Shown: positions 22,575 to 52,200, numbered from the stretch's first letter. The stretch is DNA of 64,000 nt from Marinilabiliales bacterium (GCA_002869385.1 PKTB01000002.1:3264-67263), one strand, 5' to 3'. Translations and numbers: made by a program. Notes: generated from the letters alone by a model not told the origin.

Positions 22575-22604
22575 TTAGGTAAACAACCCAACAAACAAAC
22601 AAAT

Positions 22605-23375: not shown

Positions 23376-23416
23376 AATCTAATAAAAACAAATAATAACA
23401 AACTAAACTTAGAAGT

Positions 23417-24754: not shown

Positions 24755-24772
24755 ACATCAGGAGGAAAAATT

Positions 24773-32851: not shown

Positions 32852-33226
32852 ATGAAAAAAGTTATCAATACTTCAAATGCTCCTAAAGCAATAGGACCAT
32901 ATAGTCAGGCTATAGAGTCAAACGGAATGCTATTTATTTCTTGACAAGTTCCTGTGAATCCTGCAAATGGAGAGATCCCGGAGGGTATTACAGCTCAAAC
33001 AGACCAAGTAATGAAGAATATTGCTGCAATTTTAGAAGAAGCTGGTTATAAATTTGAAAATGTGATCAAATCAACTTGTTTATTGAGTGATATGGCAAAT
33101 TTTGCTGCGATGAATGAGGTTTATGGAAAATATTATCCTGAGAATCCTCCTGCACGTGCTGCATTTGCTGTAAAAGCACTTCCTCTTGGTGCTTTGGTTG
33201 AGATTGAAACAATTGCTGTTAAGTAG
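32852..33226 (+). pseudogene. ridA: RidA family reactive-intermediate deaminase; in-frame TGA at 32942..32944
   Basis: The ATG at 32852 gives [36 protein letters not shown], where the family consensus is F(I/V)SGQ(I/L/V)P. It is in frame with ORF 32954..33226. Confidence 0.85.
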
Positions 33227-33262
33227 TTAGTTTTAATCTATGTTTAATTAAATTAATTTATT

Positions 33263-34414
33263 TTGAAAATTTATATTGCCGCTTACAATAAAGTAAGTAA
33301 TCAACAACTTAAAAGTGCAAAATCTGCATTTATGGAAAAGTTCAGCGGAGTTCAGAACTCTGACTTCGTTGATGAAGACCCTGAAATTATATGGTTTATA
33401 ACTGGTGGTTCTGAACATAATGCTTTAGAACAAATTGAACCCCAAAAAAGATACTGCTTTATTGCGAATCAGGATGATAATTCTTGGGCTGCAGCTACAG
33501 AAGTAAAAGCCTTATTAAATGAGAAAGGAATTAAAACCAGAATATTTAATTATGATCTTTTAGAAAGTCTCGAAGACTTATATGTGTTTTTTGAAGAAGG
33601 AGAAGAATATCAAACAACTCACCTAGCTATGATTGGCAAACCTGAAAGTTGGTTGGTTTCTAGTGTTCCGGATTATGATTTACTAGAGGAAGTTCTTGGA
33701 ATAAAAATTTTGGAATTTGATTGGCAAGACGTACTTAATCAGGATGAATTTTCTGATAACGATTCGTTTGATAAGTATTTTGGAAAGCATGAGTTTGCTG
33801 ATTTTGGTAAAAACAGAAGCATGTTTAATAAGCTGATGAATCTAATCTCTGTTGAAGGTGTTTCGGCTTTGTCTTTTGCTTGTTTTTATTTTGTAGAGCA
33901 GAATGAATACACAGCATGCCTTCCGGTAGCAGCTTTAAACACAATGAATATTCCTGCTACTTGCGAAGGAGATCTGTGTGCAGCAGCAGGTATGATTGTT
34001 CTATCGAGACTTAAAGGGATAGTCCCTTGGATGGCAAATATTAATTATATCGATAAAGAGTACGCTATATTCTCTCACTGTACTGCAGGGTTAGATTTTA
34101 TTAATGATTTTAAAATCAATACTCATTATGAATCAGGAAAGGGTAGTGCAATAAACGGAGAAGCAAAAGGTGGCCAGGTTACTATTTTTAGGTTAGACCA
34201 CCAATTAGAATATTGTTACTTATCATTAGGTGAATTGGTTGATTCCGGCGATTTTATTACTGGTTGTAGAACGCAGGTAAAGATAAAAATGTCAAGTAAA
34301 GATTTATTTTTGCTTAGAGAGTTTCCGCTTGGTAATCATCATTTAATTGCTCATGGTGATGTAACTGACCCATTAATAGAATATTTTACAAATAAAGGTT
34401 TTAGAATTGTATAA
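33263..34414 (+). CDS. Hypothetical protein, possibly with a fucose/arabinose-isomerase-like fold (tentative)
   Basis: 383 aa with a TTG start. The C-terminal PLGNHHLIAHGD recalls sugar isomerase C-terminal domains. The assignment is weak. Confidence 0.3.
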   Translation: MKIYIAAYNKVSNQQLKSAKSAFMEKFSGVQNSDFVDEDPEIIWFITGGSEHNALEQIEPQKRYCFIANQDDNSWAAATEVKALLNEKGIKTRIFNYDLLESLEDLYVFFEEGEEYQTTHLAMIGKPESWLVSSVPDYDLLEEVLGIKILEFDWQDVLNQDEFSDNDSFDKYFGKHEFADFGKNRSMFNKLMNLISVEGVSALSFACFYFVEQNEYTACLPVAALNTMNIPATCEGDLCAAAGMIVLSRLKGIVPWMANINYIDKEYAIFSHCTAGLDFINDFKINTHYESGKGSAINGEAKGGQVTIFRLDHQLEYCYLSLGELVDSGDFITGCRTQVKIKMSSKDLFLLREFPLGNHHLIAHGDVTDPLIEYFTNKGFRIV

Positions 34415-34450
34415 ATAAAAAAAGTCCGCTAACTAAGCGGACTTTTTTTA
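34415..34450. terminator. Bidirectional rho-independent terminator
   Basis: An A-run, a GTCCGCT/AGCGGAC stem (34424-34430 / 34436-34442), then a T-run. It lies between convergent genes. Confidence 0.8.
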
Positions 34451-34466
34451 TTTAGCTTATATAATA

Positions 34467-34913
34467 CTATTCAGAATAAACTTCAAAGTCAACACTTACT
34501 TTGATGTTTTTATAAATTTTAACTGTTGCAGTGTAATTTCCAACTTCTTTAATTCCTTCACCTTTAATTACAATGTTCTTACGATCAATGTCAAAACCTT
34601 CTTTTGCAAGAATTTCTGAAAGCATAATAGTATTTACAGAACCGAAGATTTTACCTGTTTAGCTAGTTTTAGCCGGTACTTTAATTTTAAGACCTTCCAT
34701 TTTACTTGCAACAGCTTCTGCATCTTCGCGTAGTTTTGTCTCTTTATGAGCTTTTTGTCTCATGTTTTCTTCATGCATTTTTTTAGCAGTTTTGGTTGCT
34801 AAAATTGCATATCCTTGAGGAATGAGATAATTTCTTGCGTAACCTGCTTTAACATTTACGATATCATCAACATGTCCTAAGTTCTCTACGTCTTGTTTTA
34901 ATATAATTTCCAT
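34467..34913 (-). pseudogene. rplI: 50S ribosomal protein L9; in-frame TAA at complement 34659..34661
   Basis: [34 protein letters not shown]…KVPAKTS*TGKIFGSVNTIMLSEILAKEGFDIDRKNIVIKGEGIKEVGNYTATVKIYKNIKVSVDFEVYSE, all in one frame. It is third in the rpsF-rpsR-rplI operon. Confidence 0.9.
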
Positions 34914-34930
34914 AATCTTAGCCTCCTTTT

Positions 34931-35200
34931 TTATTTCATCAAATCAGTTACATATGGCAATAGAGCTAAATGACGAGCTCTTTTAACTGCCTGAGCAACT
35001 TTACGATGATACTTTAATGATGTTCCTGTAATACGACGAGGTAAAATTTTACCTTGCTCATTTAAAAATCTTTTCAAAAATTGAGGATCTTTATAATCAA
35101 CATATTTGATACGATTTTTTAGGAAACGACAATACTTTTTCTTTTTTACTTCTACTGCCAGAGGAGTAAGATATCTGATTTCTGAATTACTTTGTGCCAT
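34931..35200 (-). CDS. rpsR: 30S ribosomal protein S18
   Basis: KKYCRF…[48 protein letters not shown]. Confidence 0.95.
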
Positions 35201-35202
35201 AA

Positions 35203-35556
35203 TTATGCCTCCTTCTGATTTTGTTCTTTTTTCATTCTGCGTTTTTTCTCACTGTATGCAACTGCATGTTTGTCCATTTTGAAAGTTAAGAATCTCATGA
35301 TTCTTTCGTCACGTCTGAACTGTGTTTCTAAGGTTTCAATAAATGCACCTTCCGATTTGAACTCAATCAGATTATAAAATCCTGTTGATTTTTTCTGGAT
35401 TGGATAAGCAAGTTTTTTTAAACCCCAATCATCTTCATGAACTATCTCACCTTTGTTATCGGTGATGACTTTCCTGAATTTGTCGACCGCTTCCTTCATC
35501 TGTGCTTCAGACAAAACGGGAGTTGCAATGAAAACGGTTTCGTACTGGTTAATCAT
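35203..35556 (-). CDS. rpsF: 30S ribosomal protein S6
   Basis: [19 protein letters not shown]…[17 protein letters not shown], then a basic C-terminal tail. Confidence 0.95.
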
Positions 35557-35600
35557 AACTCTTTGTTTTTAATTAATAATTCTTTATAAAATTTGAGCTG

Positions 35601-35608
35601 CAAAATTA
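35601..35608 (-). promoter_or_regulatory. Candidate -7 promoter box (TAATTTTG on the minus strand) for rpsF-rpsR-rplI
   Basis: The plus strand reads CAAAATTA. About 45 nt upstream of the rpsF ATG. Confidence 0.45.
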
Positions 35609-35722
35609 CTACAATTATTTAAAAGAGAAAACTTTAAAGCTACTTTTTTTGATAATTTGTTAGCATATCAAATTTTACTAATAATCAGTGATATTGTTTT
35701 TCAAAAAAGTTACATTTGCAAT

Positions 35723-36985
35723 ATGAAACGGATTTTGGATCAGATAGAACTATTTTTACTGATATTTACAGTATTTATGCTGCCGATTCATATTAAAATC
35801 ACTTCTCTTACAATTGGGGCATTATTTGTAATTTCATTATTGAAAGTTGATAATTATAAGTCGTTTTTAAATTTATTTAAAAGTTTTAAATTTTATATTT
35901 TGATCTCGCCTTTGATAGCATCAATTCTGGGGCTACTTAATACAGAGTATATTCCAGAGGCTAAGTCACAGGTTGAAATAGTACTTTCTTTAGCCGTTTT
36001 CCCTTTTATTTTTACATCATTCTCAAACAATCAAATACCAAAGAAAATATAATATTTACTTAGTTTTTATTTAATAAGTATTGTTTTTGCTTATTTTATA
36101 TGTCTTGCCGTTGCTGTCCCTCATTATTTTCGATCAAGAGATATAGATGTTTTCTTTTATTCCCATTTTAGTTCTATAATAAAAGGGCCTCATCATCTCT
36201 CTTATTATGTTTTGTTTGCGATATTTTTATTGGTATTTAATATTATTAAAAAACTTGAGCTATTTACTAGAGAGTCAAAACAATTAAGAGTATTTAAGTA
36301 TGTTAGTTTGATAATAATGATCTTGTTTTTATTCCAATTGTCAAGTAAGATTACTATTTTATTACTTGTGATTTTCTTTATGATCATGATAGTTTATATA
36401 GCAAGAAATAAAATACTAAACTACAAGCAGATTATAACGATTAGTGTGGTGATGATTGGAATGTTTGCTTTGATGTTTTGTATGCCAAAACCACGAGCCA
36501 GATTCTTAAGCATGTATCATTCTGCAATTGATTTCAAAGTGAGTAAAAAAAGTCAGGAATCAACCAAGCTTAGGTATGCAGCTATCAATGCTGGTTATCA
36601 TTTAATACAAGAAAATTTTTGGACAGGTGTTGGCACAGGCGATTTGTCGACAGAGATGAGTGAATATTACAAAGAAAATGGAATTAAATGAGCATATATT
36701 CAGCACATTTCACCACATAATCAGTTTATGCGGACATTCGTTATGTACGGAATTTTTGGTTTTCTTGGTCTTATATTGTTGTTTGTAGTTATGATAACTG
36801 ATGCAGTTAGAACTAAAAATACAATATACTTATTTTTGTCTGTTTTAATGGTGTTTTTATTTGCTGTTGAAGATATGTTTATGATTCAGGATGGTGTTGT
36901 GTTTTTTGCGATGTTTACATCATTTTATATGTTTGCATTTGATTTTTTAAAAATTAAAAGAAAGGTTGTGAGGGTTAATGAATAA
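35723..36985 (+). pseudogene. O-antigen ligase / Wzy_C family membrane protein, paralog 1; in-frame TAA at 36050..36052 and TGA at 36689..36691
   Basis: ORFs 35657..36052, 36212..36691 and 36728..36985 are all in one frame with no other stops between them. Multi-TM, with the Wzy_C-type motif SPHNQFMRTFVMYGIFGFLGL. I start it at the ATG at 35723. Confidence 0.7.
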
Positions 36986-38255
36986 GGTTCTTGATTATAT
37001 TGATTTTTATGTATACGTTTTAATAGCGTTTTTAATTCCTGTTTTCTCAAAAGCAATTCCTATTCTTATAGTGTTTTTAATTCTTACTACTTTTTTGAGA
37101 ATTTCTACATATAAGAATTTGTTTAAGCTTTTAAAATCAATCGATTTCTATATTTTGATTGCACCATTTTTGCTAATAGTTATAGGTTATTTCTATTCAA
37201 CAAATCGTCCCGAAGCATTTGTAAATATAGAAACGGGGTCATCTTTAATAATTTTTCCATTCATTCTTTATTTTAGCCGGAATAATCATCTTAAGGAAAA
37301 GTTTAATTGGATTTTTAAGGCTTTTGTAATAAGTGTTTTATTTTCGTATGTCATCTTATGGGTTGAGGCTTTACCAAAGTATCTTGAAAATGGAGATGCC
37401 TTTTTTCTTTATTATACAAGCTTTAGTAAGATAATAAAAACACCTAATCACCTTTCTTATAATGTGCTATTTGCTGTAGTAATAGTTCTTCTAAATTTAT
37501 TTGGGATTGAAGATTTACTTATTAAGAAACGAAGTAAATTCTCGATTTTTATCAATTTATTTCTCTTTTTAGTATTATCGGTTTACCTATTCCAACTTGT
37601 AGCAAAATAAACAATTTTTATTTACTTATTGATCATCCTATTAGTATTGGCAATTTCGTATTATAAAAAGATTATTAAAACATATGCTTTAGCAACATTA
37701 TTAATTTTTGTTATAGGTCTTTCATTATCAATGCTTGCTATTCCTAGAGTAAAAACAAGATTTACTAATTTGATTGAACTTGTTGTTAATAGGGATAAAG
37801 TAGATTACACGCAACAAGAGTCATCTACAATGCGTTTTTCTGCAATGAAGTCCAGTGTTGAGATTATAAAAGAGAATTGGCTAATTGGAGTTGGCCCCGG
37901 AGATGTTGTCGATGAGCTGGAATTAAGTTACGAAAGAAATAATTTTAGAGCAGCAGAATGTAAACACACTAATCCGCATAATCAATTCTTACGATCATTT
38001 TTAATGTCCGGTATTTTTGGACTAATTTCATTTATATTGATATTTTATATTCTATTCAGAAATGGGATTAAAAAGAAAAGCGTTTTAGCATTTTTATGGT
38101 CATTTATAATGTTGATTATATTTTTGGTTGATGATATGTTCATTTTTCGAGATGGAGTTGTTTATTTTGCTTTTTTTACTTCATATTTCATTTTTATTCA
38201 TCCAAAATCTAAGGCATTTATCGAAAAGAATAATACAATAAGTTCGCAAACATAA
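36978..38255 (+). pseudogene. O-antigen ligase / Wzy_C family membrane protein, paralog 2; in-frame TAA at 37608..37610
   Basis: ORFs 36978..37610 and 37629..38255 share a frame (LFQLVAK*TIFIYLLIILLV). It is colinear with paralog 1 (LFQLSSKITILLLV; NPHNQFLRSFLMSGIFGLISF). Confidence 0.7.
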
Positions 38256-38276
38256 GAGTAATAACTACTTTTAATC

Positions 38277-39083
38277 ATGATTCAAAAAATTACCAGCAAT
38301 AAAAATAAATTAATCCGTAATGTAATTTTATTACAATCAAAATCACGTGAAAGAAAGAAGCAAAATCTTATTGTTATAGAAGGTCGCAAAGAGATAGAGC
38401 TTGCTTTTCAATCGGGAATTAATGTTAAACAGTTATTGTATTGCAATGAGATTATTTCAAGTTCGGAAGTCCAAAAAATGTTCGAGAATTTAAGTAATGA
38501 TATTCAATATTTCGAAGTTAGCCGTGATGTTTTCTCAAAAATTTCATATCGTGAAACTACTGGCGGGCTAGTTGCTATTGCAGAAACTCCTGAAAAAAAT
38601 CTATGTGATTTAAAAATTACTGGAAAATCTGTTTTTGTAATATTGGAGTCAGTTGAGAAACCTGGTAATCTTGGTGCAATAGCCAGAATCGCTGATGGCT
38701 CAGGTATTGATGGTGTTATTGTTACAGAGCCTCTAACAGATATTTATAATCCTAATGCTATTAGGGCTAGCTTAGGATGTGTTTTTACAAACGATATTAT
38801 TGTTGCTGAATTTTCGGATGTAATTGATTGGTTACAGAAGAACAAAATAAAGTCGTATGCTGCAGAGCTTAAAGCTTCGGAGCTTTATCATAAAGCCGAT
38901 ATTCAAGGAAATGTTGCATTTGTCTTTTGAACAGAGGCAACAGGATTAACAGATAGGTGGATTAATGCTTGTGATTATAGAATAAAAATACCAATGCTGG
39001 GATATATTGATTCATTAAATGTGTCAGCTTCTGTTGCAGTTGTTGTCTACGAAGCAATGAGACAACGTAATTTTTTGGTTTGA
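38277..39083 (+). pseudogene. TrmH/SpoU family RNA 2'-O-methyltransferase; in-frame TGA at 38928..38930
   Basis: LESVEKPGNLGAIARIADGSG, then NVAFVF*TEATGLTDRW…IPMLGYIDSLNVSASVAVVVYE, where the SpoU motif is (V/L)FG(S/N/T)E..G(L/I). The frame ends at a TGA at 39081..39083. Confidence 0.85.
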
Positions 39084-39125
39084 TTATTGTATAAATGAAT
39101 ATGAAATACATAAAAAACTAAACAG

Positions 39126-39554
39126 ATGAAAAAGTTAGCATTTATAATATTGTTTTTTATTTCAATAGGAGTAATGGCTCAAACGAGCGAATTTGCAAAA
39201 TTAATTGATAAGACAAAACAGAGTTATTTAGACCGAGGATATGAACTCATTGCTCAAAAGAGCGACTCAATAGTGTCCGGAGTACCTTTGGTAAGCCCTG
39301 AAATAAATCTTGATTATAAAACTTATTATATTGTACTTGTTCAACTTGATGGTTGTTTTTATTGTGAGTATGATATTCAATTTGTTGACGATAAAGATTA
39401 TCTTTTTGAACTTGATTATGAGTTTCTTGTAGAAGATGGACTTAAGCAAGGAGTTTATAAGTTCAATAACGAGCAAAATACTACTGGAAAGTATGTCGTA
39501 TTTTTAGATTCAGACCTGCCATATTATGCTAATATCTTTATTTTTAAAAAATAA
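39126..39554 (+). CDS. Hypothetical secreted protein
   Basis: Signal peptide MKKLAFIILFFISIGVMAQ. No family recognised. Confidence 0.4.
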   Translation: MKKLAFIILFFISIGVMAQTSEFAKLIDKTKQSYLDRGYELIAQKSDSIVSGVPLVSPEINLDYKTYYIVLVQLDGCFYCEYDIQFVDDKDYLFELDYEFLVEDGLKQGVYKFNNEQNTTGKYVVFLDSDLPYYANIFIFKK

Positions 39555-39613
39555 TTGTTGAGCATATAAATACATCTAACTGATTTTTTTTAACTTTATA
39601 GAAATTTGTTCTT

Positions 39614-39820
39614 ATGGAATATGGAATAAAATTCTATTTAGCTATTATCCCAATAGTTTTAATTAATTTGGGGCTAGTAATATGGTCTGTTATTGATTGG
39701 AGTAAACGAAGTAAATTTAAGTTAATTACAAAGAATGTTTGGCTTATTATAATTCTGTTTATTCAGTTTGTAGGTCCTATATTATATCTGTTAATGGGGA
39801 GGGATAATGATGGTGATTAG
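39614..39820 (+). CDS. Small membrane protein, PLDc_N (phospholipase-D-nuclease N-terminal) family
   Basis: 68 aa with 2 TM helices. Pattern SVIDW…K..WLIIILFIQFVGPILYLLMGR. Confidence 0.6.
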   Translation: MEYGIKFYLAIIPIVLINLGLVIWSVIDWSKRSKFKLITKNVWLIIILFIQFVGPILYLLMGRDNDGD

Positions 39821-40748
39821 TTGTTCGGAGCTCACAAAATATTACTCCGGCGAAAAAATACCTGCAATAAAAAAACTAAATCTTGATGTAGCAAAAGGTG
39901 CAGTGTTTGGTTTTCTTGGTCCTAATGGAGCAGGGAAAACTACTACTATAAAAATACTTACAGGTCAGATGTCTCCGGATTTAGGTAAAGTGTACATATT
40001 AGATTCGGAAATGACAGTTAAATCCATTGATATTAAGAGAAAGATTGGATATATTGGTCAGGACCATATGATGTACTCATGGATGAAATCTGAGGAACTT
40101 TTGCTTTTTGTTGGAAGTATTTTTGGTCTTTCAAAGTCAGATGCAAAAAGCAGAGCAAAAAACCTGCTTGATATTTCTGGTTTAAGTCAAGCAAAAAATA
40201 AAAGAGTCTCTGCTTTGTCGGGTGGTATGAAACAACGTTTGGGAATTGCACAAGCTATGATGGGCAAACCCGAAGTTTTGTTTTTGGATGAGCCTACTTC
40301 TGCACTAGATCCTATTGGAAGAAAAGAGGTTTTGAATTTTATTCATGAAATTAAAGATGAAACAACAGTTTTTATGTCGACACATATTCTTGAGGATGTT
40401 GAAAGAGTATGCGATACAGTTGCAATAATTGATAATGGTGAAATTATAATTCAGGAAGAGACTAAAAACTTAAAAGAGAAATTTTCAAATAATATCATTG
40501 AATTAGAATTTGCAAATCAAAATGAACTTGAAACTTTAAAGAAAATTGTAAATAATAGACCTGATTTAGGAGAGATTATTAACGAAAGTTCAGAATTCCT
40601 TGTTATTCATCCCAAAGATATCGATTACTCTAGGAAAGGTTTTCTGGATGAAATTAGTAGAAACAATATTGGTTTGTTAAGGTTTGAATTATCAAAACCC
40701 AGCCTTGAGGATATTTTCGTAAAACTGGTAGAAGGTAAGAATGAATAA
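39807..40748 (+). CDS. ABC transporter ATP-binding protein
   Basis: Walker A GPNGAGKTT, signature LSGGMKQRL, Walker B LFLDEPTSALD. Confidence 0.9.
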   Translation: MMVISCSELTKYYSGEKIPAIKKLNLDVAKGAVFGFLGPNGAGKTTTIKILTGQMSPDLGKVYILDSEMTVKSIDIKRKIGYIGQDHMMYSWMKSEELLLFVGSIFGLSKSDAKSRAKNLLDISGLSQAKNKRVSALSGGMKQRLGIAQAMMGKPEVLFLDEPTSALDPIGRKEVLNFIHEIKDETTVFMSTHILEDVERVCDTVAIIDNGEIIIQEETKNLKEKFSNNIIELEFANQNELETLKKIVNNRPDLGEIINESSEFLVIHPKDIDYSRKGFLDEISRNNIGLLRFELSKPSLEDIFVKLVEGKNE

Positions 40749-41505
40749 AAAACTATTTTTCATATTGTTAAAAAAAGAGCTACGCGAGCAATTGCGAAAT
40801 TCTAAATTACTTGTGGTTCTTGCTGTTTTCTTTTTCTTTGGAATTGTATCACCCATTACTGCGATGTTTATGCCCGATATTATCGCAGGAATTTCTGATT
40901 CACAAAATATACAGATTGAAATCCCGGAACCTGTATGGCAAGATGCAGTTAGTCAATATTTAAAAAATCTTACTCAAATGGGTTCATTCATTCTCATTAT
41001 TGTATTTATGGGAATAGTTTCAAAAGAAAAGGAATCAGGCTCGTTAATTTTTTTGATTGTTAAACCAGTTAGTCGATCTGTATTTCTGCATGCAAAGTAT
41101 TCATCAGTAGCGATAACAGCATTAGCGGGAATGTTAATAGCATACTTGTCATCTAGCTTTTATACATTTTTATTTTTTGATAGATTTGATTTACTAGCAT
41201 TTTCAAAAATAAACCTGATGATGTTTGAATATGTTTTATCTGTATTGGTTATTACAGTATTTTTTAGCTCTTTGTTTAAATCACAGATATTAGCCGGAGT
41301 TTTAAGCTTTGCGTCATATCTGATTTTTAATCTGCTTTCGCAAGTTGAATCTTTAGGTAAATTCTTACATGGTGGAATTTTAACTCAGACAAATAATGTA
41401 TTGTCTGAATCTCCAATTGATTATACAGTTTTTGTTTCAAGTCTTGCAATAATGATATTATGTATATTTATTTCATCAATTGTTTTTAAACGTTGGGAAC
41501 CTTAA
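40741..41505 (+). CDS. ABC-2 type transporter permease
   Basis: 254 aa, 6 TM helices, with a start overlapping the ATPase stop. Confidence 0.7.
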   Translation: MNKKLFFILLKKELREQLRNSKLLVVLAVFFFFGIVSPITAMFMPDIIAGISDSQNIQIEIPEPVWQDAVSQYLKNLTQMGSFILIIVFMGIVSKEKESGSLIFLIVKPVSRSVFLHAKYSSVAITALAGMLIAYLSSSFYTFLFFDRFDLLAFSKINLMMFEYVLSVLVITVFFSSLFKSQILAGVLSFASYLIFNLLSQVESLGKFLHGGILTQTNNVLSESPIDYTVFVSSLAIMILCIFISSIVFKRWEP

Positions 41506-41546
41506 TGAAAGAAATCTGTTATAGTTAAAAATTAGTCTTTTTAACT

Positions 41547-42002
41547 ATGGAAACACGAGCAAAAACAGTTGAAGAGTATTTGGAAACTCTTCCTGAGGAT
41601 AAAAAATCTGCATTAATTAAACTTAGAGATACTATTAAGCATAATATTCCTGAAGGCTTTAAAGAAACAATGGCGTATGGGATGCCATCATTTGTTGTAC
41701 CTCATGAAATTTATCCTAAAGGTTATCATGTTAATCCAAATGAACCATTACCATTTATAAGTTTTGCATCTCAAAAGAATAATATCTCGATTTATCATAT
41801 GGGAATGTATTCAGATACTAATTTAATGGACTGGTTTCTTGATGAGTATCCTCAATATCTTTCAACAAAACCAAATATTGGAAAAAGTTGTGTAAGGTTT
41901 CGTAAACCTGAACAAATTCCTTATCAGTTAATAGCAGATCTTGTTAGTAAAATGACTCCTCAGACCTGGATTGATATTTACGAAAAGAACTATCGTAAAT
42001 AA
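41547..42002 (+). CDS. DUF1801 (YdhG-like) domain protein
   Basis: TVEEYLETLPEDKKSALIKLRDTIK…MAYGMPSF…ISFASQKNNISIYHMG. Confidence 0.6.
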   Translation: METRAKTVEEYLETLPEDKKSALIKLRDTIKHNIPEGFKETMAYGMPSFVVPHEIYPKGYHVNPNEPLPFISFASQKNNISIYHMGMYSDTNLMDWFLDEYPQYLSTKPNIGKSCVRFRKPEQIPYQLIADLVSKMTPQTWIDIYEKNYRK

Positions 42003-42054
42003 ATTTGTTTTCAGTTTTTAATATTTTCTGTATTTTTATCTAAAATACAGTCTT

Positions 42055-42471
42055 ATGAAATATGTTTACATATTGGCCATTGTATTTGGTTTTGGTATGC
42101 TCGTCTATTTTTATGGGTTTAACTTTGATAATATGTCAGAGGAGCAATTAATAGATACAGTATTATATTGGTATGTTCCTTTAACTTTTGGTTTGTATGG
42201 AATTGTCGCTTATTTGGTTCGAAAAACAGCATCTAATAATCAAGCGAGAGCAATTCAACTAATGTTTTCGGGCAAGAATGTTGGATTAACAGTATTATCA
42301 GTGTTTTTATTAGCATACACAGGACTTGTTGGATTTTTAGTATTTATTATCCCATTATCTGTTATAAAACTGAGTTCAAAAATGTACGATTTTCTATCAG
42401 CGCTTATTGGTACAACTATATGGATTGGTGGACTTTGGGCATTTTTTTATTTCTTTTGGGCATCATTATAA
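42055..42471 (+). CDS. Hypothetical membrane protein (4 TM helices)
   Basis: Hydrophobic profile only. Confidence 0.4.
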   Translation: MKYVYILAIVFGFGMLVYFYGFNFDNMSEEQLIDTVLYWYVPLTFGLYGIVAYLVRKTASNNQARAIQLMFSGKNVGLTVLSVFLLAYTGLVGFLVFIIPLSVIKLSSKMYDFLSALIGTTIWIGGLWAFFYFFWASL

Positions 42472-42480
42472 AATTATATT

Positions 42481-43593
42481 ATGAGAATCAAACCATTTAC
42501 CCTCGAACGATATTTTGCAAAATATGAGTTTAGTACAAAATATTTAATCTCTAGTTCAGATTGCGATGGTTATTCGCTAGACTATATCTTGAAACAAGCA
42601 AATCAGGAAGAACTGTCATTATGGAACAACCTTAAGTTCGGATATACTGATTCTTCGGGATCTGATTTTTTACGAAAAGCAATAATTAATCAATATAATT
42701 ATATTAATGAAGATGAAGTTAAAGCTATGACACCTGGAGAAGCAAATTATGCATTAATGAATATTTTGCTTACAAAATGTGATGAAATTGTTTGTATTTC
42801 ACCTGCATATCAGAGTCTGTACCAGGTTGCCGAAAGTTTGGGTGCAAAAATTAAATTTTGGAAACCTGTGAAAATGGGTGAGGGATTTTATTTTGACACT
42901 GATGATTTAAATAATTTAGTAAATGAAAATACAAAACTTATAATTATTAATTTTCCCCATAATCCAACTGGATTTGTACCAACGATTACTGAGCAACAGA
43001 AAATAGTTGAAATTGCATCTAAGTACAATACAATCCTGTTTTCAGATGAAATGTATCATAAGATTGTTCATAAACCGGAATACGATATTCCATCGTTTTG
43101 CGATATCTACGAGAATGCAATAAGTTTATGGGGTATGGCAAAATCCTTTGGTCTTGCAGGAATGCGTTTTGGTTGGATTGCCAGTAAACGCACTGATATT
43201 TTAAACGATGTGGTTTCATTTAAAGATTATTTGTCAATTTGTAATAATGCAGCAGGAGAGGTGTTGACGACTATTGCCTTAAATCATAAGGATAAGTTTA
43301 TCGACCCGAATATTGAAAAAATAAAAAAGAATAAGGCAATATTTGTGGAATTTGTAAATAGACACTCTGATTTATTGGGATTCTCAGATACAAAAGCAGG
43401 TTCAACGGCATTTGTAAGGTTAAACTTTGATAAAAATGCATTTGATTATTGCGAAGATTTGGTTAAAAAAACAGGTATTATGATGATTCCATCAGAGATG
43501 TTTGAATATGGAAACTCCCATGTAAGGATTGGATTTGGAAGAGAGAATTTTGAGGAGGTTTTGGGAGTTTGGGAAGGGTATATTTACAGATAA
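42481..43593 (+). CDS. Class I/II PLP-dependent aminotransferase
   Basis: NFPHNPTG, and WGMAKSFGLAGMRFGW (PLP lysine context). Confidence 0.8.
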   Translation: MRIKPFTLERYFAKYEFSTKYLISSSDCDGYSLDYILKQANQEELSLWNNLKFGYTDSSGSDFLRKAIINQYNYINEDEVKAMTPGEANYALMNILLTKCDEIVCISPAYQSLYQVAESLGAKIKFWKPVKMGEGFYFDTDDLNNLVNENTKLIIINFPHNPTGFVPTITEQQKIVEIASKYNTILFSDEMYHKIVHKPEYDIPSFCDIYENAISLWGMAKSFGLAGMRFGWIASKRTDILNDVVSFKDYLSICNNAAGEVLTTIALNHKDKFIDPNIEKIKKNKAIFVEFVNRHSDLLGFSDTKAGSTAFVRLNFDKNAFDYCEDLVKKTGIMMIPSEMFEYGNSHVRIGFGRENFEEVLGVWEGYIYR

Positions 43594-43747
43594 ATATTAA
43601 CTAAATTTTTTCTATCATTGGGGAGGTAGAGGAACATTTATCGAACATGATATTGTTGGCAAGAAGGTTAAATAAAAGAATAAATTCAAATTATTTTCGT
43701 TTTAATTTTAAACCCATACAACCATTTCAAATCTGGTTTACACTTTA

Positions 43748-44284
43748 ATGCAGAGTATGGATAAGAAAACCGAGAAAATATTGGTCAAAAAGTGTTTACG
43801 AAATGATAGATTGTCGCAAAAGCAGTTATTTGATCAATATAAAGATGCAATGTATACTCTTTGTTATCGGATAACAGCCGATGAGGAAGATGCGAAAGAT
43901 GCTCTGCAGGAAGGTTTTATAGCGGTTTTTAATAGTTTGTCCTCATTTAGTTTTAAATCAACTCTTGGTGCATGGATTAAAACAATTATCGTTAGAACAG
44001 CTATTAGAAAAACTAAGAAATTGTATTTCGAATCAATTGAAAATGTAGAAGACGAATCTTACACATTTGACGAATCTTTAAATGGAGAAATGCTTCATAA
44101 AGCTATTATGATGCTTGATCCTGGTTTTCGTTCTGTGTTCATACTCTACGAAGTTGAAGGATATTCTCATAAAGAAATTGCAGAAATCGCAGATATCTCA
44201 GTAGGGACATCCAAATCACAACTTCATTATGCGAAAAAGAAACTAAAATCAATCATCGTAAATCAGTTTGAGTATGAAAGATAG
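43748..44284 (+). CDS. ECF-type RNA polymerase sigma-70 factor
   Basis: Region 2 (FDQYKDAMYTLCYRI…DALQEGFIAVF) and region 4 (EGYSHKEIAEIADISVGTSKSQLHYAKKKL). Confidence 0.85.
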   Translation: MQSMDKKTEKILVKKCLRNDRLSQKQLFDQYKDAMYTLCYRITADEEDAKDALQEGFIAVFNSLSSFSFKSTLGAWIKTIIVRTAIRKTKKLYFESIENVEDESYTFDESLNGEMLHKAIMMLDPGFRSVFILYEVEGYSHKEIAEIADISVGTSKSQLHYAKKKLKSIIVNQFEYER

Positions 44285-45509
44285 TAATTTACATAAGGCA
44301 ATACAGGAAATGCCACAATTTGAGGCTCCTGATATATGTGGAAATATCGAAAAAAATATTAAACCTACTAGAAAAAAGCTAATTGTACCCATTGTTTTAT
44401 TAATGCTTATTGCAATTAGTACAGTATTGGTTATTTCACACTATTCGAAAACACCTGTAATTGAATCCGCAAATCGCAATAACGAATTGTATAAAGATAA
44501 TACTGCATTAAATTTACATTCAGAGGATGAAAATATAGAAGAGACTTTTGAATTTACTGAAGCCGGTGATTCTCAAATAACAAGGATTACAGAAGAAAAT
44601 ACAGATATTCCAGAATATTATCCTGCTGATCTAATAGTATATTTAAATATTGATATTGATTTGTCGGATGAGGATTTGATTAATCAGGATGTTATATTAG
44701 ATACTAATGTTTCTCAATTAAAAATAGAGGAGCGAATTGTATATAAAGAAAAAGGTGTAAATCTGGTAAGAAATCCGAGTTTTGAAGATTATAGAATTTG
44801 TCCTGCAGGTATAGTAGGAAGACCTTCAAGAAAACTTATTCCTGATTGGCAAGTGCCAAACAAAGGAACTCCTGATTATTTTAATGTGTGCAGTAAAAAA
44901 GAAGCTGGTGTGCCAATAAACTTTGCAGGTCGTGCAGAAGCTCATTCTGGTGAAGGATATGTTGGAATTATTTTGCGTCAGAATTTCACCAGGGATAACA
45001 AAATCACTGGAGAAAAAGCTGTTATTTATCGTGAATACATACAAAACGAGTTAAAATCAGAATTAGTAAAAGGTAAAACATACAAGATAACTTTCTGGGT
45101 ATGCAATTCTACAAATTCAAGGTTTGCTGTTGATGGTGTAGGAGCATGTGTAACGGTCGGGAATGAATGGACAACTCATAAAGAAGTTCTTGAGATAATA
45201 CCGGTTGTTGAAAATCCGACAGGAAATGTCCTGATGAATCAAAATTACTGGGTAGCAATTGAAGGTTATTATACCGCTCAGGGTGGCGAAAAATATTTAA
45301 CAATTGGAAACTTTAAAAATAATTTCTCTACAAATTATATGATGCAAAGCAATGAATCAGCTTTCAACTACTCATATTATTATATTGATGATGTTAGTGT
45401 TATTGAGGTTGAAGAAGAAGTTGAAACCTATATAATAGACGAAAACTCAGAATCAGTTGTTGATGAAGATAATATTTCGTTAGCCGAAGAAAATTATACA
45501 GACTGGTAA
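44268..45509 (+). CDS. Single-pass membrane protein in the anti-sigma position, with a large extracytoplasmic beta-sandwich-like domain
   Basis: It overlaps the sigma gene by 17 nt, with a TM helix at about aa 37-58. The C-terminal domain is NLVRNPSFEDYRICP…WQVPNKGTPDYFNVC…GEGYVGIIL…YLTIGNF…YYYIDDVSVIE. Confidence 0.55.
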   Translation: MSMKDSNLHKAIQEMPQFEAPDICGNIEKNIKPTRKKLIVPIVLLMLIAISTVLVISHYSKTPVIESANRNNELYKDNTALNLHSEDENIEETFEFTEAGDSQITRITEENTDIPEYYPADLIVYLNIDIDLSDEDLINQDVILDTNVSQLKIEERIVYKEKGVNLVRNPSFEDYRICPAGIVGRPSRKLIPDWQVPNKGTPDYFNVCSKKEAGVPINFAGRAEAHSGEGYVGIILRQNFTRDNKITGEKAVIYREYIQNELKSELVKGKTYKITFWVCNSTNSRFAVDGVGACVTVGNEWTTHKEVLEIIPVVENPTGNVLMNQNYWVAIEGYYTAQGGEKYLTIGNFKNNFSTNYMMQSNESAFNYSYYYIDDVSVIEVEEEVETYIIDENSESVVDEDNISLAEENYTDW

Positions 45510-45567
45510 AATATAATTCATCCGTATTATAATTATTCGTAAGTTTGGGAAAACAAACCAAACAACT

Positions 45568-46212
45568 ATGAAAAATCTATTATCAATCGTAGCACTTCTG
45601 ATAATATTTAGCAGTTTTGCTTGCAACTCTTCAACAAATTCAGAAGTAAATGACAACACTGAGGAAAATCAAATAGTCAAAAAGGAATACAAACTTGACA
45701 AAGAACAATCTCTAATTTCATGGGTGCGTAATGTGGATTATAAGCACATTAGTAAGCAAGTCTTTATGTTTGGCGCTTATGTTGATGTTACAATGGATAA
45801 TGTTCAGTATGAAACATCAGGTAGTTTAATTCCAACAGAGGGTGAATTATATACCGAAGATGATATTATTGTAAAAGGAGAAGTTGAGATAGATCTTAGC
45901 TTAACACGTTTTTACAGTGAAGAAGAAGAGAGCTTTTTTGTTAATGAAACTTATCCTCCTGCAACTCTAAAAATGAATGAGTTTATTGATAATGAAGATG
46001 GTAATTTTACTGTTAAAGCTGAATTGATAATGGAAGAAACTACTGTTTCAATAGAATTTCCAGCAATTATATCTCAGACTGAAGAAGAAATTGTTTTATC
46101 CGGCGAAATTAAAGTACAATCATCCTCACTTCCTATTTTAAATCAACCTGATCCGGAAAATGTAAATATGGATGAGATTGTTTTTGGGATGGAATTGGCG
46201 TTTATTCTTTAA
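45568..46212 (+). CDS. Hypothetical lipoprotein (possibly YceI-like)
   Basis: Lipobox FSSFAC. There is only a weak resemblance to the YceI layout. Confidence 0.35.
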   Translation: MKNLLSIVALLIIFSSFACNSSTNSEVNDNTEENQIVKKEYKLDKEQSLISWVRNVDYKHISKQVFMFGAYVDVTMDNVQYETSGSLIPTEGELYTEDDIIVKGEVEIDLSLTRFYSEEEESFFVNETYPPATLKMNEFIDNEDGNFTVKAELIMEETTVSIEFPAIISQTEEEIVLSGEIKVQSSSLPILNQPDPENVNMDEIVFGMELAFIL

Positions 46213-46247
46213 ACATTTTTTTAACTTTTTAATTAGTTGATAGTTTT

Positions 46248-49200
46248 ATGTTGAAGACAAAAGTAAAATTATTGATTCTGATTATCTTATTCTTTAGTAG
46301 TTCATTAAAGGTATTTAGTCAGCCAATTATATCTTCATTACAAATAGTAGAAGTAGGAAATACTTCAGTATCTCTACAATGTGAAGTGCTAAATGAGAAT
46401 GTAAATTTTGTTACTAATAGAGGTTTTGTTTGGGATGATACAATGAATCCAATAATAGAAACAGGTATGGGATTTTCGGACTCAGGTGAAGATATTGGAT
46501 TGTTTTGTGATACTATTACAGGTTTTAATGATGGGCAGATATATTATATAAGAGCATATGCTATAAATGATGATGGAATAACATATAGTGATACAGAACA
46601 GTTTTCAACACTAGAACTGAATAATTGTGGAGTAATAACAGATTTGCGCGATGGGAATACATATGAAACAGTTGAGATTGGTGCACAATGTTGGATGGCT
46701 GAAAATCTTAGATATTTGCCAACTGTTACAGGTGATTTTGCAGATTGGTACAGTGAATCTTCAAATTACGCAGTATATGATTACATAAGTAATGACAATC
46801 TTGTTTCGCAAGCAATCCTTGAAGATGAATATAGAAATTATTGTGTACTGTACAATAGTTATGCTGCTAACGCTGCTTGCCCGGAGGGTTGGCGACTACC
46901 CACAGAAACTGATTTAAATGTATTGGAAAATTATATAATAAATACCTCAGAATTTGATCATGCTTATCTATTAAAGTCTTGTAGACAAGAGTCGTCACCA
47001 TTGGGTGAAATGTGTGAAACTGAGCAACATCCAAGATGGGATGAATCAGATTATTATGGAATTGATAATTATGGTTTTAATGCATTACCCGGAGGTTTGA
47101 GACATTTAACAGGTAGTTTTCTTGATATGGGGTCTACAGGTTACTGGTGGGGATCGAATATTAATAAGGATAATCAGTCGGTAAGATTTTCAATGTCTAT
47201 CGATAATAATAACTTAAATATTTCGTATCGTGAGCGAGAAATGGGGTATTCAATTCGATGTATTCAAGAAACATCTTTAGGAGCAATAGCTCCAGAAATT
47301 ATTACTGTTGAACCATTTGATATTACACAAATGAGTTTTGTGACAGGAGGAGAAATCGTAAATGATGGTTCGTGTTCGATTGTTGAAAAGGGAATTGTTT
47401 ATGGTAATTTTACTGGTATAAATTTATAATTAAATGACGGAAAAATTCTTTGTGGTATGAGTAGCGAGAATTATACCACAAAACTGCTTGGGTTTAATGA
47501 CGATTCAACTTACTATATTAGGGCTTATGCAATAAATCTTGTGGACACAGCTTATGGAGATGAAATTGAGATTTTAATGCCAAACTTTGATGATTGTGGC
47601 TTATTGACAGATATTAGAGATGGTAATATCTATAAAACTGTGCAAATTGGGAATCAATGCTGGTTGGCTGAAAATTTAAAATATTTACAGGAAGTAACAG
47701 GTCCCAATGAGGAGTGGGTTTCTGAAGATCCCAAATATGCAGTTTATGCTTATTTAGATGCCTTAAACTCTGTTGCAGATGCAAAGCTAGAGGAGAACTA
47801 TTTGAATTATGGCGCATTATATAATTGGCCAGCTGCACAAGATGCATGTCCTGAAGGTTGGCATTTGCCGACAAACACAGAATTGGAACAATTATTTGTT
47901 AGTGTTGAGGAGTACTCTATTGAGTATTTTGAGGAATACTTTTTGGGTTTGGGAAATGCAATGAAATCATGTAACAAGAGTCTCGAAGGTTGTTATTGTT
48001 CAACAACAAATCATCCATATTGGTCTGTTAGTAATTCTGCTGTCAGTAGAAATTTTGTTGGGTTTAATGCTTTTCCAGGAGGACACAGAACTGATGATTT
48101 CTCAGGTTTAATCTATAGTGGTAGGTTCTGGGTAGATGATTACGATTATATTAATCATACTTCAACACCTTTACTTTTTACACTTAGTCATACCAGTAAT
48201 GATTATTATCTAAACGATGTTAACATTACAGAGACATACAGCCCGGGTTATTCTATTCGCTGTATTAAACATGCTGATTTATCTGCCAGTATTCCAAGTT
48301 TAGTTTTAAATCAAGTAGGTCCGACAACAGAGAATGCTGTTGATTTAAGTGCAGAAATTACTGATATAGGAGGAGATAATATTGTGTTGAGAGGGTTTGT
48401 TATTAGTAGTACCCCATCGCCTGAATTAGAATCATGTGAATCATACAAACTTATAGAAGATCAATTATTGGAATATGCGGCTACTTTACAAGGTTTTTCA
48501 CCAAATAGCACATATTACATTAGAGCATTTGCAGAAAACAATGTTGGGATAGGTTATAGCAATGAGATTGAAATAAATACATTAGCTTTCTCAGATTGTG
48601 GTGAGTTAGTTGATTCTAGAGATGGCAAGACATATAAAACAAGCATTATAGGAGAACAATGTTGGATGTCTGAGAATCTTAAGTATTTACCATCAATTAA
48701 TGGCCCTAATTCAGATTGGTCTACAAATGAGCCAGCTTATACTGTATATGATTATACAGATGAAGCAAACTCTATTCTAGATGCTGAAGCTACTGAATAC
48801 TACAATGCATATGGTGTTTTATATAATTGGGCATCAGCCCCAAATGCATGTACAGATGGCTGGCATTTGCCGACCATAAATGAGTGGGATGTATTAATTA
48901 GTTATCTAGAACAAACATATGACCTTATTAATGAATCTAATAGCGCTTGTCAAGGTGTTGCTCATACTTTAGTTTCATGCAGGTCTTTAAATTCATTAAT
49001 TGATTGCTATTGTCAGGTTGTCGAGCATCCATATTGGAATTACGGTGTAAGTGACGACTGTAGAAGCGATTGGTTTGGTTTTTCTGTATTACCTTCAGGA
49101 ACAAGATCTTATAATGGTACTTACTCAAATATGGGCAGCTCGACAGGTTTCTGGATAGTTGGATATACTACAGATTATAATGCAAGTATTATATTCTTTG

Positions 49201-52200
49201 GTTCATCTGATAATATTAATCTATACCATCAGAATAAAAGAAATGGTTCTCCTATTAGATGCATTAAAGACTATAGCCCTTTAGCTGATGTGCCTCAAGT
49301 GTCGACAAATGATATTATATCAACCGAAGCTACTATGATTAAAGTGTAGTGTGAGGTTGTAAGTAGTGGTGGCGTTCCAGTTGTTGAAAGAGGTTTAATC
49401 TATAATACTACCCCTACTTTAGATATTGATAATAACTTGGGTTATTTAGCTAGTGGTGTAGGACCTGGGGTATATGAAGTTTCTATTAATGGTTTAGATA
49501 AAAATACTGAGTATTATTTTAGAGCTTATGCAATTAATAGTTCTGGTATTGCATATGGAGATGTGATTTCTGCAAGCACAATCGAATATGATAATTGTGG
49601 TGTTCTTTTTGACGATAGGAATGGTAAAGTCTATGAAACAGTAATTATTGGATCCCAATGTTGGATGGCCGAGAACTTAAAATATTTGCCTGAGGTCACA
49701 GGGAATGATGCTGAGTGGTATTCAACTGATCCAAGATATGCTGTATATGATTATGATGATATTGCTAATTCAACAATATATGCTCTCAGTAATCCTAATT
49801 ATGGTGATTATGGAGTCCTTTATAATTGGTATGCTGCTATTGACGCTTGTCCAGAAGGATGGCATTTGCCCGATACATTAGAGTGGTCATTTATGTTTAA
49901 AGAAATACAAGATAATTTTGGTATCGAAAACATAAATGATGAATATGGAATGGGAAATTCTCTAAAATCATGTAGACAAGGGGCAACACCATTGCAATGT
50001 GAATGTGAAGTTAATGATCAGCCTAGATGGGAATACTATAATGATGAGTGTTATGGAACAAATCTTTTCGGGTTTTCAGCTTTGCCTGGAGGTATCAGAC
50101 ATTATTTATCTGGTAATTTCGGTGATAATGGATATGTTTCATATATGTGGTCTGCAACACCTTTGGATGAAATAGATGCTTTTTGTTATTATATGCATTC
50201 AGGTTTGGGGGATATTAGACGATACGAAAGAGAGAAGGAATATGGATTTTCTATACGTTGTGTTAAAGATTTGTCTGAAGATACTGAAGAACCGGAAATA
50301 ATTACTTATACCCCTACAGATGTTACTTTAACATCTGCGCTAATTGGATGAGAGATCGTTACTAGTGACGACGTTGTAGTTTTTCAAAAAGGTGTTTTAG
50401 TTGGTATTGGACCTAATGTTACATATCAAAATAACCTAAGAACATATCTTAGCGATGATAATAGTTTAGATTTTGAGTTTTATTGTGACAAATTGATGGT
50501 TGGAACAAATTATTATTGTAAAGCATTTGCAATTACAAGTTTTGGGTTGCAGTATGGACAGGCACATCTTTTAACCACTGTTTCTGTTGAGAATTGTGGA
50601 ATAATAACTGATGAGAGAGACCTAAACTCTTATAAAACTGTTAAGATCGGTAATCAATGTTGGATGGCGGAGAATTTAAAATATTTGCCAAGTGTAGATA
50701 GTCTTTCATCTGATTTAGAAATGACTAGCCCACAATATTTTGTTTCAAGCTATTCTGGTGAAGAGAATGATGTATGGGAGGCTATAAACACTGAGGGGTA
50801 TGCGGCTTATGGCGTGCTTTATAACTGGTATGCAGCAACTGGAGGAGGAAGTGCACCTAATAATCAAATTGGAGTTCAGGTGATTTGCCCAAGTGGATGG
50901 CATTTGCCATCTGAGCAGGAGTGGATTGTTTTTGAAATGAACATGGGTATTCCGGATGAAGAAATTTTCGATTTTTATCGTGGGGATAACGAAGGATGTA
51001 AACTTGCAGGTAATTATAGTAAATGGAATATTGATTCTTTGGTGCTAGATGATGAATTTGGAGTATCAGGTTTTAATGCTTTACCAGGTGGAGCAAAATA
51101 TAATACAGGAATTAGTTCAGTAGGGGCTTATGGGAATTTCTGGGTTTCAGCTGATACAAGTGTAAATGATTTTATTTATCGACGTTTGGCCTATAGCAGT
51201 CCTCGAATTTGGAGAGGTGAATTATCCAGTTGGAATGCTGCTTTTTCAGTACGTTGTATGAAGAATTTGAATAGTGAAATAGTTGTGCCAGAAGTAATTA
51301 CAGGAGATGTAATTTCAATTTGTCCAGATTCCGTAATATTGTCTGGAAATGTGTTGTTTGATGGTAATGAATTGTTGGCTAACAAAGGAATAATAATTGG
51401 GTTAAATCCATTTTTAACTGTTGAAGATAATGTTGAGATTATATCTGATCCTTCAATTGATTTTGAGATATTTTCAACTTTTTATGGTTTAATGCAGGGA
51501 ACAACCTATTATTTTAGGGCATATGCTATAAATAGTGTTGGTACAGCTTATGGTGAAGTTAGAAGTTTTGATGCTGATTATTGTGGTGAAGTAGATTTAA
51601 ATATTGTATATTCTGAACCACAGCTTTCTTCCGAAAATAATTTAGATGTTTGTTGGGATTACGAAAATGATCAACCTAATGAAATGCAGATACAATTATC
51701 AGGGACATATCCACCTGCTGCATATCCATTGGATGATGAATCGATATACTATACTTGGGATTTTGGTGATGGAAGTCCAATTGAAGAAGGAATAGGCTTA
51801 AACGAAGTTTCACATATTTATCCTGAAAGTGGAGGATATAATCTTTTGGTAACTATTACAGATTCACAAGGTTGTGAAAATGCTAATATAATAAATCAGA
51901 TTGTTAGAGTCTCATTCCCAATTGATTGGGTATCTGAGTCCACTTATCTTTCAAATAATACTATTCTACAAGGAGAGTTTGTCGAAATGTGTGTTGCCTT
52001 TAATGATACAATTTGGACTCCGGAAATTTCATATCAGTTGTTCGAAAATACTGATACAACATTAATTATATACTGTGATGGTAATGTATATGAAACATCA
52101 TCAAGTATATTTATTGATTTATTTAATGATGGTGATATCATAAATTCAGAAAATTCATTCAATTCTGTTAATCTGAATTTAGTTCATTCATTTTTGGGAG

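Follow-up and report, generated by a model that had tools for sequence, protein, structure and literature searches.

The window, the 64,000-nucleotide stretch of DNA analysed here, belongs to the NCBI-deposited version of a ~135-kb contig whose nearest relatives are uncultured Bacteroidales, and T9SS, PorP/SprF and Por_Secre_tail genes are present. Across the whole window, five in-frame TGA codons, and no others, lie within real genes (Table 1). The original prediction had placed three of these on conserved glycines, and the peptides that it quoted were found verbatim: ridA reads MLFIS-TGA-QVPVNP, the SpoU/TrmH methyltransferase reads AFVF-TGA-TEATGL, and a module of the giant surface protein begins SALIG-TGA-EIVTSDD, the paralogous module of the same protein reading SFVTGGEIVNDGS. 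The ridA column is glycine in the three PDB homologs shown, and the SpoU column is glycine in the three PDB homologs shown and in 20 of 20 genomic orthologs. The two TGAs that had been called uninformative, in wzyA and in the PKD-repeat gene, also fall on glycine, as the codon is GGA in the syntenic relative L001 and in the ENA copy of the contig, respectively.

Collinear copies of the contig that carry no indels were found in JGI 3300007102 (Ga0102541_1277314; 135,316 bp), in ENA ERZ794998 (NODE_86; 135,219 bp, with a coverage of 5.57 in the contig name) and in two Logan runs, SRR5894287 and SRR5894289; the identity of the window to these assemblies is 99.8%. At all five TGA sites the other public assemblies have the glycine codon GGA and the genes are intact, which bears out the placement of the internal TGAs on glycine. 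The SpoU product, for example, is 268 aa long in P0001 and P0122, and 217 aa long in the window's own P0121; NCBI nr contains this truncated form, from a contig of 135,315 bp. Since the conspecific alleles are plain GGA, selenocysteine insertion and programmed read-through were dropped as candidates. We also searched the surroundings of the stops for a shared sequence motif, which a base-calling error at methylation sites might leave, and found none.

The inventory of internal stops in the original prediction was right in its five TGAs and incomplete otherwise, as it missed at least 12 in-frame TAA or TAG codons in real genes, including rplI, etfB, porP/sprF and both O-antigen-ligase-like genes. 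These occur at the same rate as the TGAs, in the TGA-bearing genes and in others, and raise the number of nonsense codons in the 64 kb to at least 17, with ridA and spoU also among the broken genes. About 9 of the 28 genes in the compared span are interrupted, too many for a viable genome. Most of the TAA and TAG codons were identified by comparison with the other assemblies. The stop that divides the histidine kinase gene falls just outside the compared span and was inferred from gene length, and three further stops were identified from the protein domains around them.

Table 1. In-frame stop codons in genes of the window, and the terminal stop of spoU (positions counted from the first letter of the window)
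Codon (change)	Gene	Position	Strand	Evidence
TAA	alpha/beta-hydrolase gene (16313..17119)	16490..16492	+	Abhydrolase_1 domain spans stop
TAA	etfB (18382..19131)	18553..18555	+	ETF domain spans stop
TAG	3-hydroxyacyl-CoA dehydrogenase gene (23471..24754)	24017..24019	+	N- and C-terminal Pfam domains flank stop, contiguous in register; window DNA only
TAA	TPR-histidine kinase gene (27600..29657), divided by the stop	28254..28256	+	gene length: single 685-aa product in JGI and ENA
TAA (TCA>TAA, C>A)	NMO-family gene (29665..30600)	30439..30441	+	comparison with other assemblies
TGA	ridA (32852..33226)	32942..32944	+	window-private G>T; GGA in JGI and ENA; Gly in PDB homologs and L001
TAA (TCA>TAA on coding strand; G>T on +)	ribosomal protein L9 gene rplI (34467..34913)	34659..34661	-	comparison with other assemblies
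TAA (GAA>TAA)	O-antigen-ligase-like wzyA (35723..36985)	36050..36052	+	comparison with other assemblies
TGA	wzyA	36689..36691	+	GGA in JGI, ENA and syntenic relative L001
TAA (TCA>TAA)	wzyB (36978..38255)	37608..37610	+	comparison with other assemblies
TGA	SpoU/TrmH methyltransferase gene (38277..39083)	38928..38930	+	GGA in JGI, ENA and Logan SRR5894287
TGA (genuine stop)	spoU	39081..39083	+	closest ortholog (L001) ends ...RQRDFLV-TGA at same position
TAA (GAA>TAA)	2351-aa surface protein gene (46248..53303); 46248..47429 thus mimics a separate gene	47427..47429	+	comparison with other assemblies
TAG (TCG>TAG)	2351-aa surface protein gene	49347..49349	+	comparison with other assemblies
TGA	2351-aa surface protein gene	50349..50351	+	GGA in ENA and Logan SRR5894289
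TAA (GAA>TAA, coding strand)	PorP/SprF T9SS gene (58162..59184)	58735..58737	-	comparison with other assemblies
TGA	1470-aa PKD-repeat gene (59880..>64000)	60204..60206	+	GGA in ENA
TAA (GAA>TAA)	1470-aa PKD-repeat gene; apparent end of ORF 60432..62045	62043..62045	+	comparison with other assemblies

Base-by-base conspecific comparison covered 35.7 kb, starting after the first 28 kb of the window, and revealed 58 differences and no indels. The differences comprised 34 G>T and 22 C>A changes (56 of 58) and no transitions, and all five TGAs are G>T changes from GGA relative to three or four other assemblies, which supports the G:C>T:A signature proposed in the original prediction. ENA and the two Logan runs agree with each other, and the changes in the window are all private, being reproduced in no other assembly. 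In a 20.8-kb three-way comparison, G>T/C>A made up 32 of the 34 changes private to the window and nine of the 10 private to the JGI assembly, and none of the G>T/C>A changes was common to the two. Between 48 and 64 kb, where ENA and Logan SRR5894289 are identical, 26 of the 27 window differences were G>T/C>A. The polarity of the changes was assessed with L001 as the outgroup: of 17 amino-acid-changing sites, L001 sided with the other assemblies at 13 and with the window at none. A hypermutation test against L001 gave G>T versus T>G counts of 151 versus 127 in the stop-bearing part and 47 versus 30 upstream, L001 being too diverged for this purpose.

The giant-gene region of the conspecific copies was reached via PorP/SprF; a 700-aa C-terminal query from the giant protein did not retrieve the conspecific 2351-aa product, and a contig scan with an OmpA-like protein query yielded relatives of at most 85% identity and no conspecific contig. 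Exact-protein look-ups gave no match for six ORFs in the first 28 kb, for ORF 58162..58542 or for the truncated SpoU P0121. The failed matches in the first 28 kb fit the presence of errors there too, without proving them. A literature search on the accessions of the sample and runs gave no hits.

The effects of the changes match those of random G>T/C>A hits, with no purifying selection. The 58 changes consist of 40 missense, 13 nonsense, 4 synonymous and 1 intergenic, against a random G>T/C>A expectation of 76%, 13%, 7% and 4%, respectively. Synonymous changes numbered 4 of 56 where 3.9 were expected, and nonsense changes were in slight excess (13 versus 7.4 expected; P = 0.03), probably due to the bias in sequence context. 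With all changes placed in the C>A orientation, the 5' neighbour was C in 27 cases (10.1 expected), T in 25 (19.5 expected), G in 4 (10.2 expected) and A in none (16.2 expected). The altered G is thus mostly followed by another G or by A, and never by T, a preference that is that of guanine oxidation (8-oxoG).

This spectrum accounts for the glycine pattern. Of the sense codons that a single substitution turns into TGA, 20% are GGA, and five glycines out of five would be beyond chance if point mutation were unbiased (P = 0.0004). A process restricted to G:C>T:A can reach TGA only from GGA or from the rare cysteine codon TGC, with GGA forming 90% of the routes, so TGAs made by error land on glycine and imitate genetic code 25; five out of five then has a probability of 0.59 and is an expected by-product. 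The TGA-on-glycine pattern is almost certainly not a real biological feature.

The original prediction had also noted that a TGA=Gly code (table 25) would look the same. Decoding of TGA as glycine, by code 25 or, early in a reassignment, by a suppressor tRNA-Gly(UCA), would agree with the alignment of all five TGAs to glycine, with the low GC content (33%) and with TGA being a minority stop codon. The code 25 of Gracilibacteria and Absconditabacteria (Campbell 2013 and Rinke 2013, as summarised in PMC8629427) resembles the window in these conserved glycines and the low-GC genome. However, the GGA alleles of the conspecific assemblies refute code 25 at these five sites, and we assign next to no probability to glycine decoding. 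At least 12 in-frame TAA or TAG codons stand alongside the TGAs, some within the same genes, and TGA still acts as a terminator: the terminal TGA of spoU coincides exactly with that of its ortholog, TGA closes 3 of the 27 intact genes of the error-free reference, and the 11,288 codons of that reference contain no internal stop. TGA would also represent just 5 of ~714 glycine codons here, and the Bacteroidales host lies outside the known code-25 clades, in the wrong phylum (PMC8629427). No tRNA genes, and hence no tRNA-Gly(UCA), were seen in the window or in four scanned loci (L001, L082, L097 and L098), and no release-factor domain was found among the subset of window ORF products scanned against Pfam. 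A related trap is known from Codetta screens, in which pseudogenes drive false stop-codon inferences (Shulgina & Eddy 2021, PMC8629427). There, as here, stops arise non-randomly from certain neighbour codons, point to one amino acid and so suggest a false reassignment; the changes in that case are transitions in real pseudogenes (e.g. TGG>TGA, Trp), whereas here they are G>T errors (GGA>TGA, Gly).

The alternatives that retain the standard code treat the stops as real mutations. If the genome were degenerating under relaxed selection, with real nonsense mutations inherited by the lineage in ordinary fixed pseudogenes, this would be in keeping with the many interrupted genes and with the frequent loss of surface-protein and O-antigen genes in nature. 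We regard this as extremely improbable, as the stops are missing from all other assemblies of the contig at 99.8% identity, the interrupted genes are otherwise undamaged, with 49–92% protein identity to their L001 orthologs and no indels, and the spectrum lacks transitions. In living cells, 8-oxoG mutagenesis, which the GO system counters, likewise yields pure G:C>T:A changes in a GG/GA context. A sub-population without GO repair (a mutY/mutM-type mutator), captured as a lineage or as a mosaic of cells, might therefore produce the same dominance of G:C>T:A transversions, and the independent assemblies, which have no errors common to JGI and the window, possibly come from different libraries or samples. 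A mutator clone must nevertheless be viable and show some selection, and here the effect classes equal random expectation, synonymous changes being no more frequent, and nonsense changes no rarer, than chance predicts. Core genes are struck at the neutral rate: the nonsense codons of the window extrapolate to between about one quarter and one third of the gene set, rplI, etfB and porP/sprF among them, a load that no single clone could carry together. Each assembly, moreover, has a different private set of G>T changes, and not one of the 58 changes is a transition. A mutator origin thus seems unlikely. We consider it less likely still that an environmental Bacteroidales population without effective GO repair, in which cells carry private 8-oxoG loads, was sampled as a mosaic by a low-coverage assembly.

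The TGAs are part of a scatter of G>T/C>A changes that is private to the NCBI copy of a low-coverage contig and does not reflect recoding; our data make it very likely that this scatter derives from 8-oxoG-type damage or an equivalent error. We infer that in vitro damage or consensus error, and not in vivo mutation, is the cause; a technical origin of the G:C>T:A signature in a low-coverage assembly, which the original prediction had not considered, is the most likely one. The source is an uncultured Bacteroidales bacterium whose contig was assembled from a low-coverage metagenome. Oxidised guanine, or an equivalent G>T read error, would have passed into the consensus owing to low unique coverage, giving private substitutions that would be absent from the organism's genome. 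As a G that precedes G or A is favoured, the first base of GGN and GAN codons would often be struck, converting GGA to TGA and GAA to TAA, and damage on the other strand would convert TCA to TAA and TCG to TAG. Private G>T/C>A substitutions have a density of ~1.6/kb in the window consensus, and consensus errors at ~1 per 600 bp would need unique coverage to be very low, PCR duplication to be heavy or error correction to be weak.

The closest known counterpart is the oxidative (8-oxoG) artefact of library preparation, which generates C>A/G>T errors in a CCG>CAG context (Costello et al. 2013, PMC3616734). The window agrees with this artefact in a spectrum that is nearly all G>T/C>A (as is the JGI-private set), in strongly favouring C on the 5' side of the altered C (CCN>CAN), i.e. 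the 5' G of a GG step (PMC3616734), and in changes that are not reproduced between assemblies and bear no signature of selection. It differs in also using TCN, CCG not being the top context in this AT-rich genome, and in that the errors in the literature are read errors at low allele fraction, whereas those in the window stand in a deposited consensus.

The finding is mainly a practical caution, in that oxidative G>T errors in a deposited metagenome contig would interrupt about a third of its genes. Because GGA forms most of the G:C>T:A routes to TGA, such errors give a clean but false TGA=Gly signal, which could mislead codon-reassignment screens, pseudogene counts and protein databases; truncated products of the window's record are already in NCBI nr. 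An artefact of this kind can be quickly told from true recoding by in-frame TAA or TAG on Glu and Ser codons and by transversion-only differences from sister assemblies. For the organism itself there is no biological consequence: the bacterium reads TGA as a stop, as in the standard genetic code that it uses, and has intact genes.

Read-through of TGA links genuine coding segments at exactly five sites in the window (32942, 36689, 38928, 50349 and 60204). The original prediction placed such codons on conserved glycines, and the peptides quoted for it were found in the window sequence. In ridA, the three PDB homologs shown carry the SGQ-motif Gly opposite the TGA; in the SpoU/TrmH methyltransferase gene, spoU, three PDB homologs and 20 of 20 genomic orthologs all place the (F/L/M)G(T/S/P/A)E Gly there. 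The nearest GTDB species representative, the uncultured Bacteroidales bacterium L001 (protein identity 49-98%), is syntenic with the window at 20.6-22.5 kb and 30.7-44.3 kb, and has Gly at the TGA sites of ridA, wzyA and spoU. The observation is correct and extends to both sites initially left unscored (36689 and 60204). As spoU ends in the window with ...RQRNFLV-TGA at 39081, and its L001 ortholog ends in the same place with ...RQRDFLV-TGA, TGA still functions as a terminator in this lineage.

The window has a GC content of 33%, contains no tRNA genes in its 64 kb, and carries a Bacteroidales-type gene set: T9SS cargo proteins with Por_Secre_tail, PorP/SprF, a beta-oxidation/Etf cluster, rpsF-rpsR-rplI and pta-ackA. 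Translation with table 11 left the majority of ORFs unbroken, and the 60 ORFs of at least 100 aa end in TAA (41), TAG (12) or TGA (7). Relative to L001 there are two insertions, one of about 8 kb at 22.5-30.7 kb (enoyl-CoA hydratase, 3HCDH, thiolase, TPR-His kinase, NMO) and one of about 3 kb at 39.6-42.4 kb (PLDc_N, ABC transporter pair, DUF1801). Two tandem paralogous O-antigen-ligase-like (Wzy_C) genes at 35723-38255 overlap by 8 nt, share about 35-39% identity with each other's L001 orthologs, and are also kept as a pair in L001. The T9SS cargo protein gene at 46248-53303 encodes an fn3-like module repeated five times and a Fib_succ_major (TIGR02145) domain, then PKD, P_proprotein and Por_Secre_tail; downstream lie genes for a thioredoxin-like protein, an amidohydrolase, an OmpA-like protein, PorP/SprF and the 1470-aa PKD protein.

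A protein search with SpoU recovered an unbroken 268-aa product (99% identity) on a 135,316-bp JGI contig. The 90% cluster of this protein also holds an unbroken ENA/Logan version, and a 217-aa NCBI version on a 135,315-bp contig that is identical to the window's truncated ORF. We compared the window with the conspecific loci from JGI (L081), ENA (L082 and L097, NODE_86_length_135219_cov_5.569649) and Logan (L083 and L098). The JGI, ENA and Logan loci are collinear with the window with zero indels, and in the conspecific loci ridA (124 aa), L9 (148 aa), wzyA (420 aa), wzyB (425 aa), SpoU (268 aa) and PorP/SprF (340 aa) are unbroken, as are the single 2351-aa surface protein (window 46248..53303) and the single 1470-aa PKD protein (59880..>64000).

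In a three-way comparison over 20,807 bp, 34 changes were private to the window (17 G>T, 15 C>A, 1 A>C and 1 G>C) and 10 to JGI (5 G>T, 4 C>A and 1 T>C). The JGI record thus has its own G>T/C>A set, the same type of error at a lower rate; these nine changes in L081 (Ga0102541_1277314), eight missense and one intergenic, fall at window-equivalent positions 30681, 32108, 34993, 37221, 38283, 40969, 42724, 42840 and 45030. The ENA-private differences form a cluster of six inside 22 bp (L082, window-equivalent 33346-33367, in the 383-aa gene 33263..34414; 4 C>A, 1 G>A and 1 A>C, unpolarised), which is a local mis-assembly or strain variant. Between 48 and 64 kb, G>T/C>A changes in the window account for 26 of 27 differences, and ENA and Logan SRR5894289 agree fully. 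Taken together, the 35.7 kb of compared sequence yield 58 changes private to the window, among them 34 G>T and 22 C>A, with no transitions. At 17 amino-acid-changing sites the outgroup L001 matches the other assemblies 13 times and the window never.

The window contains 12 further in-frame TAA/TAG stops within real genes, all absent from the original prediction; those in wzyA, wzyB and rplI came to light through same-frame adjoining segments and alignment to L001. Where a conspecific copy is available, the source change is GAA>TAA, TCA>TAA or TCG>TAG; the four stops outside the compared span were placed from Pfam domains across or beside the stop and from gene lengths. At least 17 codons in the 64 kb are broken, and about 9 of the 28 genes in the compared span carry stops. 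Separately, a TAG at 3938 parts two same-frame ORFs, 2699..3940 (TPR protein) and 3947..4276 (109 aa, CarboxypepD_reg domain), and may be another error-made stop dividing one gene.

In-frame TAA/TAG stops and the fatty-acid/butyrate beta-oxidation cluster of the window
Feature	Position	Strand	Gene or content	Remark
TAA	16490		alpha/beta hydrolase	outside compared span
TAA	18553		etfB	outside compared span
TAG	24017		3-hydroxyacyl-CoA dehydrogenase (3HCDH)	outside compared span
TAA	28254		TPR-histidine kinase	outside compared span; single 685-aa gene in JGI/ENA
In-frame stop	30439		NMO gene	
TAA	34661	-	rplI (ribosomal protein L9)	alignment to L001
TAA	36050		wzyA	gene also bears TGA 36689
TAA	37608		wzyB	
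In-frame stops	47427 and 49347		2351-aa giant gene	two stops
In-frame stop	58737	-	porP/sprF	
In-frame stop	62043		1470-aa PKD gene	
Beta-oxidation cluster	14419-26011		acyl-CoA synthetase, alpha/beta hydrolase, acyl-CoA dehydrogenase, etfB, etfA, Fe-S/CCG oxidoreductase pair, enoyl-CoA hydratase, 3-hydroxyacyl-CoA dehydrogenase, thiolase-like gene	

The 58 changes comprise 40 missense, 13 nonsense, 4 synonymous and 1 intergenic. Applying every G->T and every C->A to the unbroken reference gave a neutral expectation of 76.2% missense, 13.2% nonsense, 6.9% synonymous and 3.7% intergenic. The synonymous count matches this expectation, and nonsense changes (5 GGA>TGA, 4 GAA>TAA, 3 TCA>TAA and 1 TCG>TAG) are not depleted (13 observed versus 7.4 expected, P = 0.03). 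Genome-wide, a load such as the at least 17 broken codons in 64 kb is impossible in a living clone.

The changes depend strongly on sequence context. In the C>A orientation, the 5' neighbour of the changed base was C in 27 cases (10.1 expected), T in 25 (19.5), G in 4 (10.2) and A in none (16.2); equivalently, the 3' neighbour of the altered G in a G>T change is G or A, seldom C and never T. This order is the established one for guanine oxidation, most favoured at the 5' G of GG, then at GA. Every GGN codon opens with a GG step and so offers its first G as the 5' G, which makes Gly codons a preferred target; beside the five GGA>TGA we found five GGT>TGT and one GGG>TGG. Of the sense codons that a single G:C>T:A change turns into TGA, GGA offers 289 sites and TGC 32, so that 90% of error-made TGAs would fall on Gly under G:C>T:A versus only 20% under unbiased mutation, which fully explains the TGA-Gly pattern without recoding. 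The division between G>T and C>A follows G and C content (61% versus 57% expected), the pattern that damage on either strand would give.

The context preference agrees with the CCN>CAN of the 8-oxoG library artefact (Costello et al. 2013, PMC3616734), which the window resembles in the three features tested, spectrum, context and non-reproducibility; the absence of selection is in line with this. The ENA contig name gives a coverage of 5.57, from which we infer that the consensus could have been set by individual damaged templates or by PCR duplicates of them. A real population deficient in GO repair, the mutY/mutM-type system against 8-oxoG, is a small possibility as the source of the changes; against it, each assembly has its own private set, transitions and selection are absent, and no living cell could bear the gene-inactivation load, and these four points favour a technical origin. 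Of the two readings originally offered, the G:C>T:A signature is borne out by the private G>T/C>A spectrum against the other assemblies, whereas a TGA=Gly code (code 25) failed on the four of its five defining features put to test, the fifth being a tRNA-Gly(UCA) together with loss of RF2. The case is akin to the false stop-codon inferences that pseudogenes yield (Shulgina & Eddy, PMC8629427), although the residue there is Trp and here is Gly, because the errors in the window are G>T rather than transitions. The TGA-on-Gly pattern is thus no real biological feature of this organism, and the main value of the case is as a quality-control warning.
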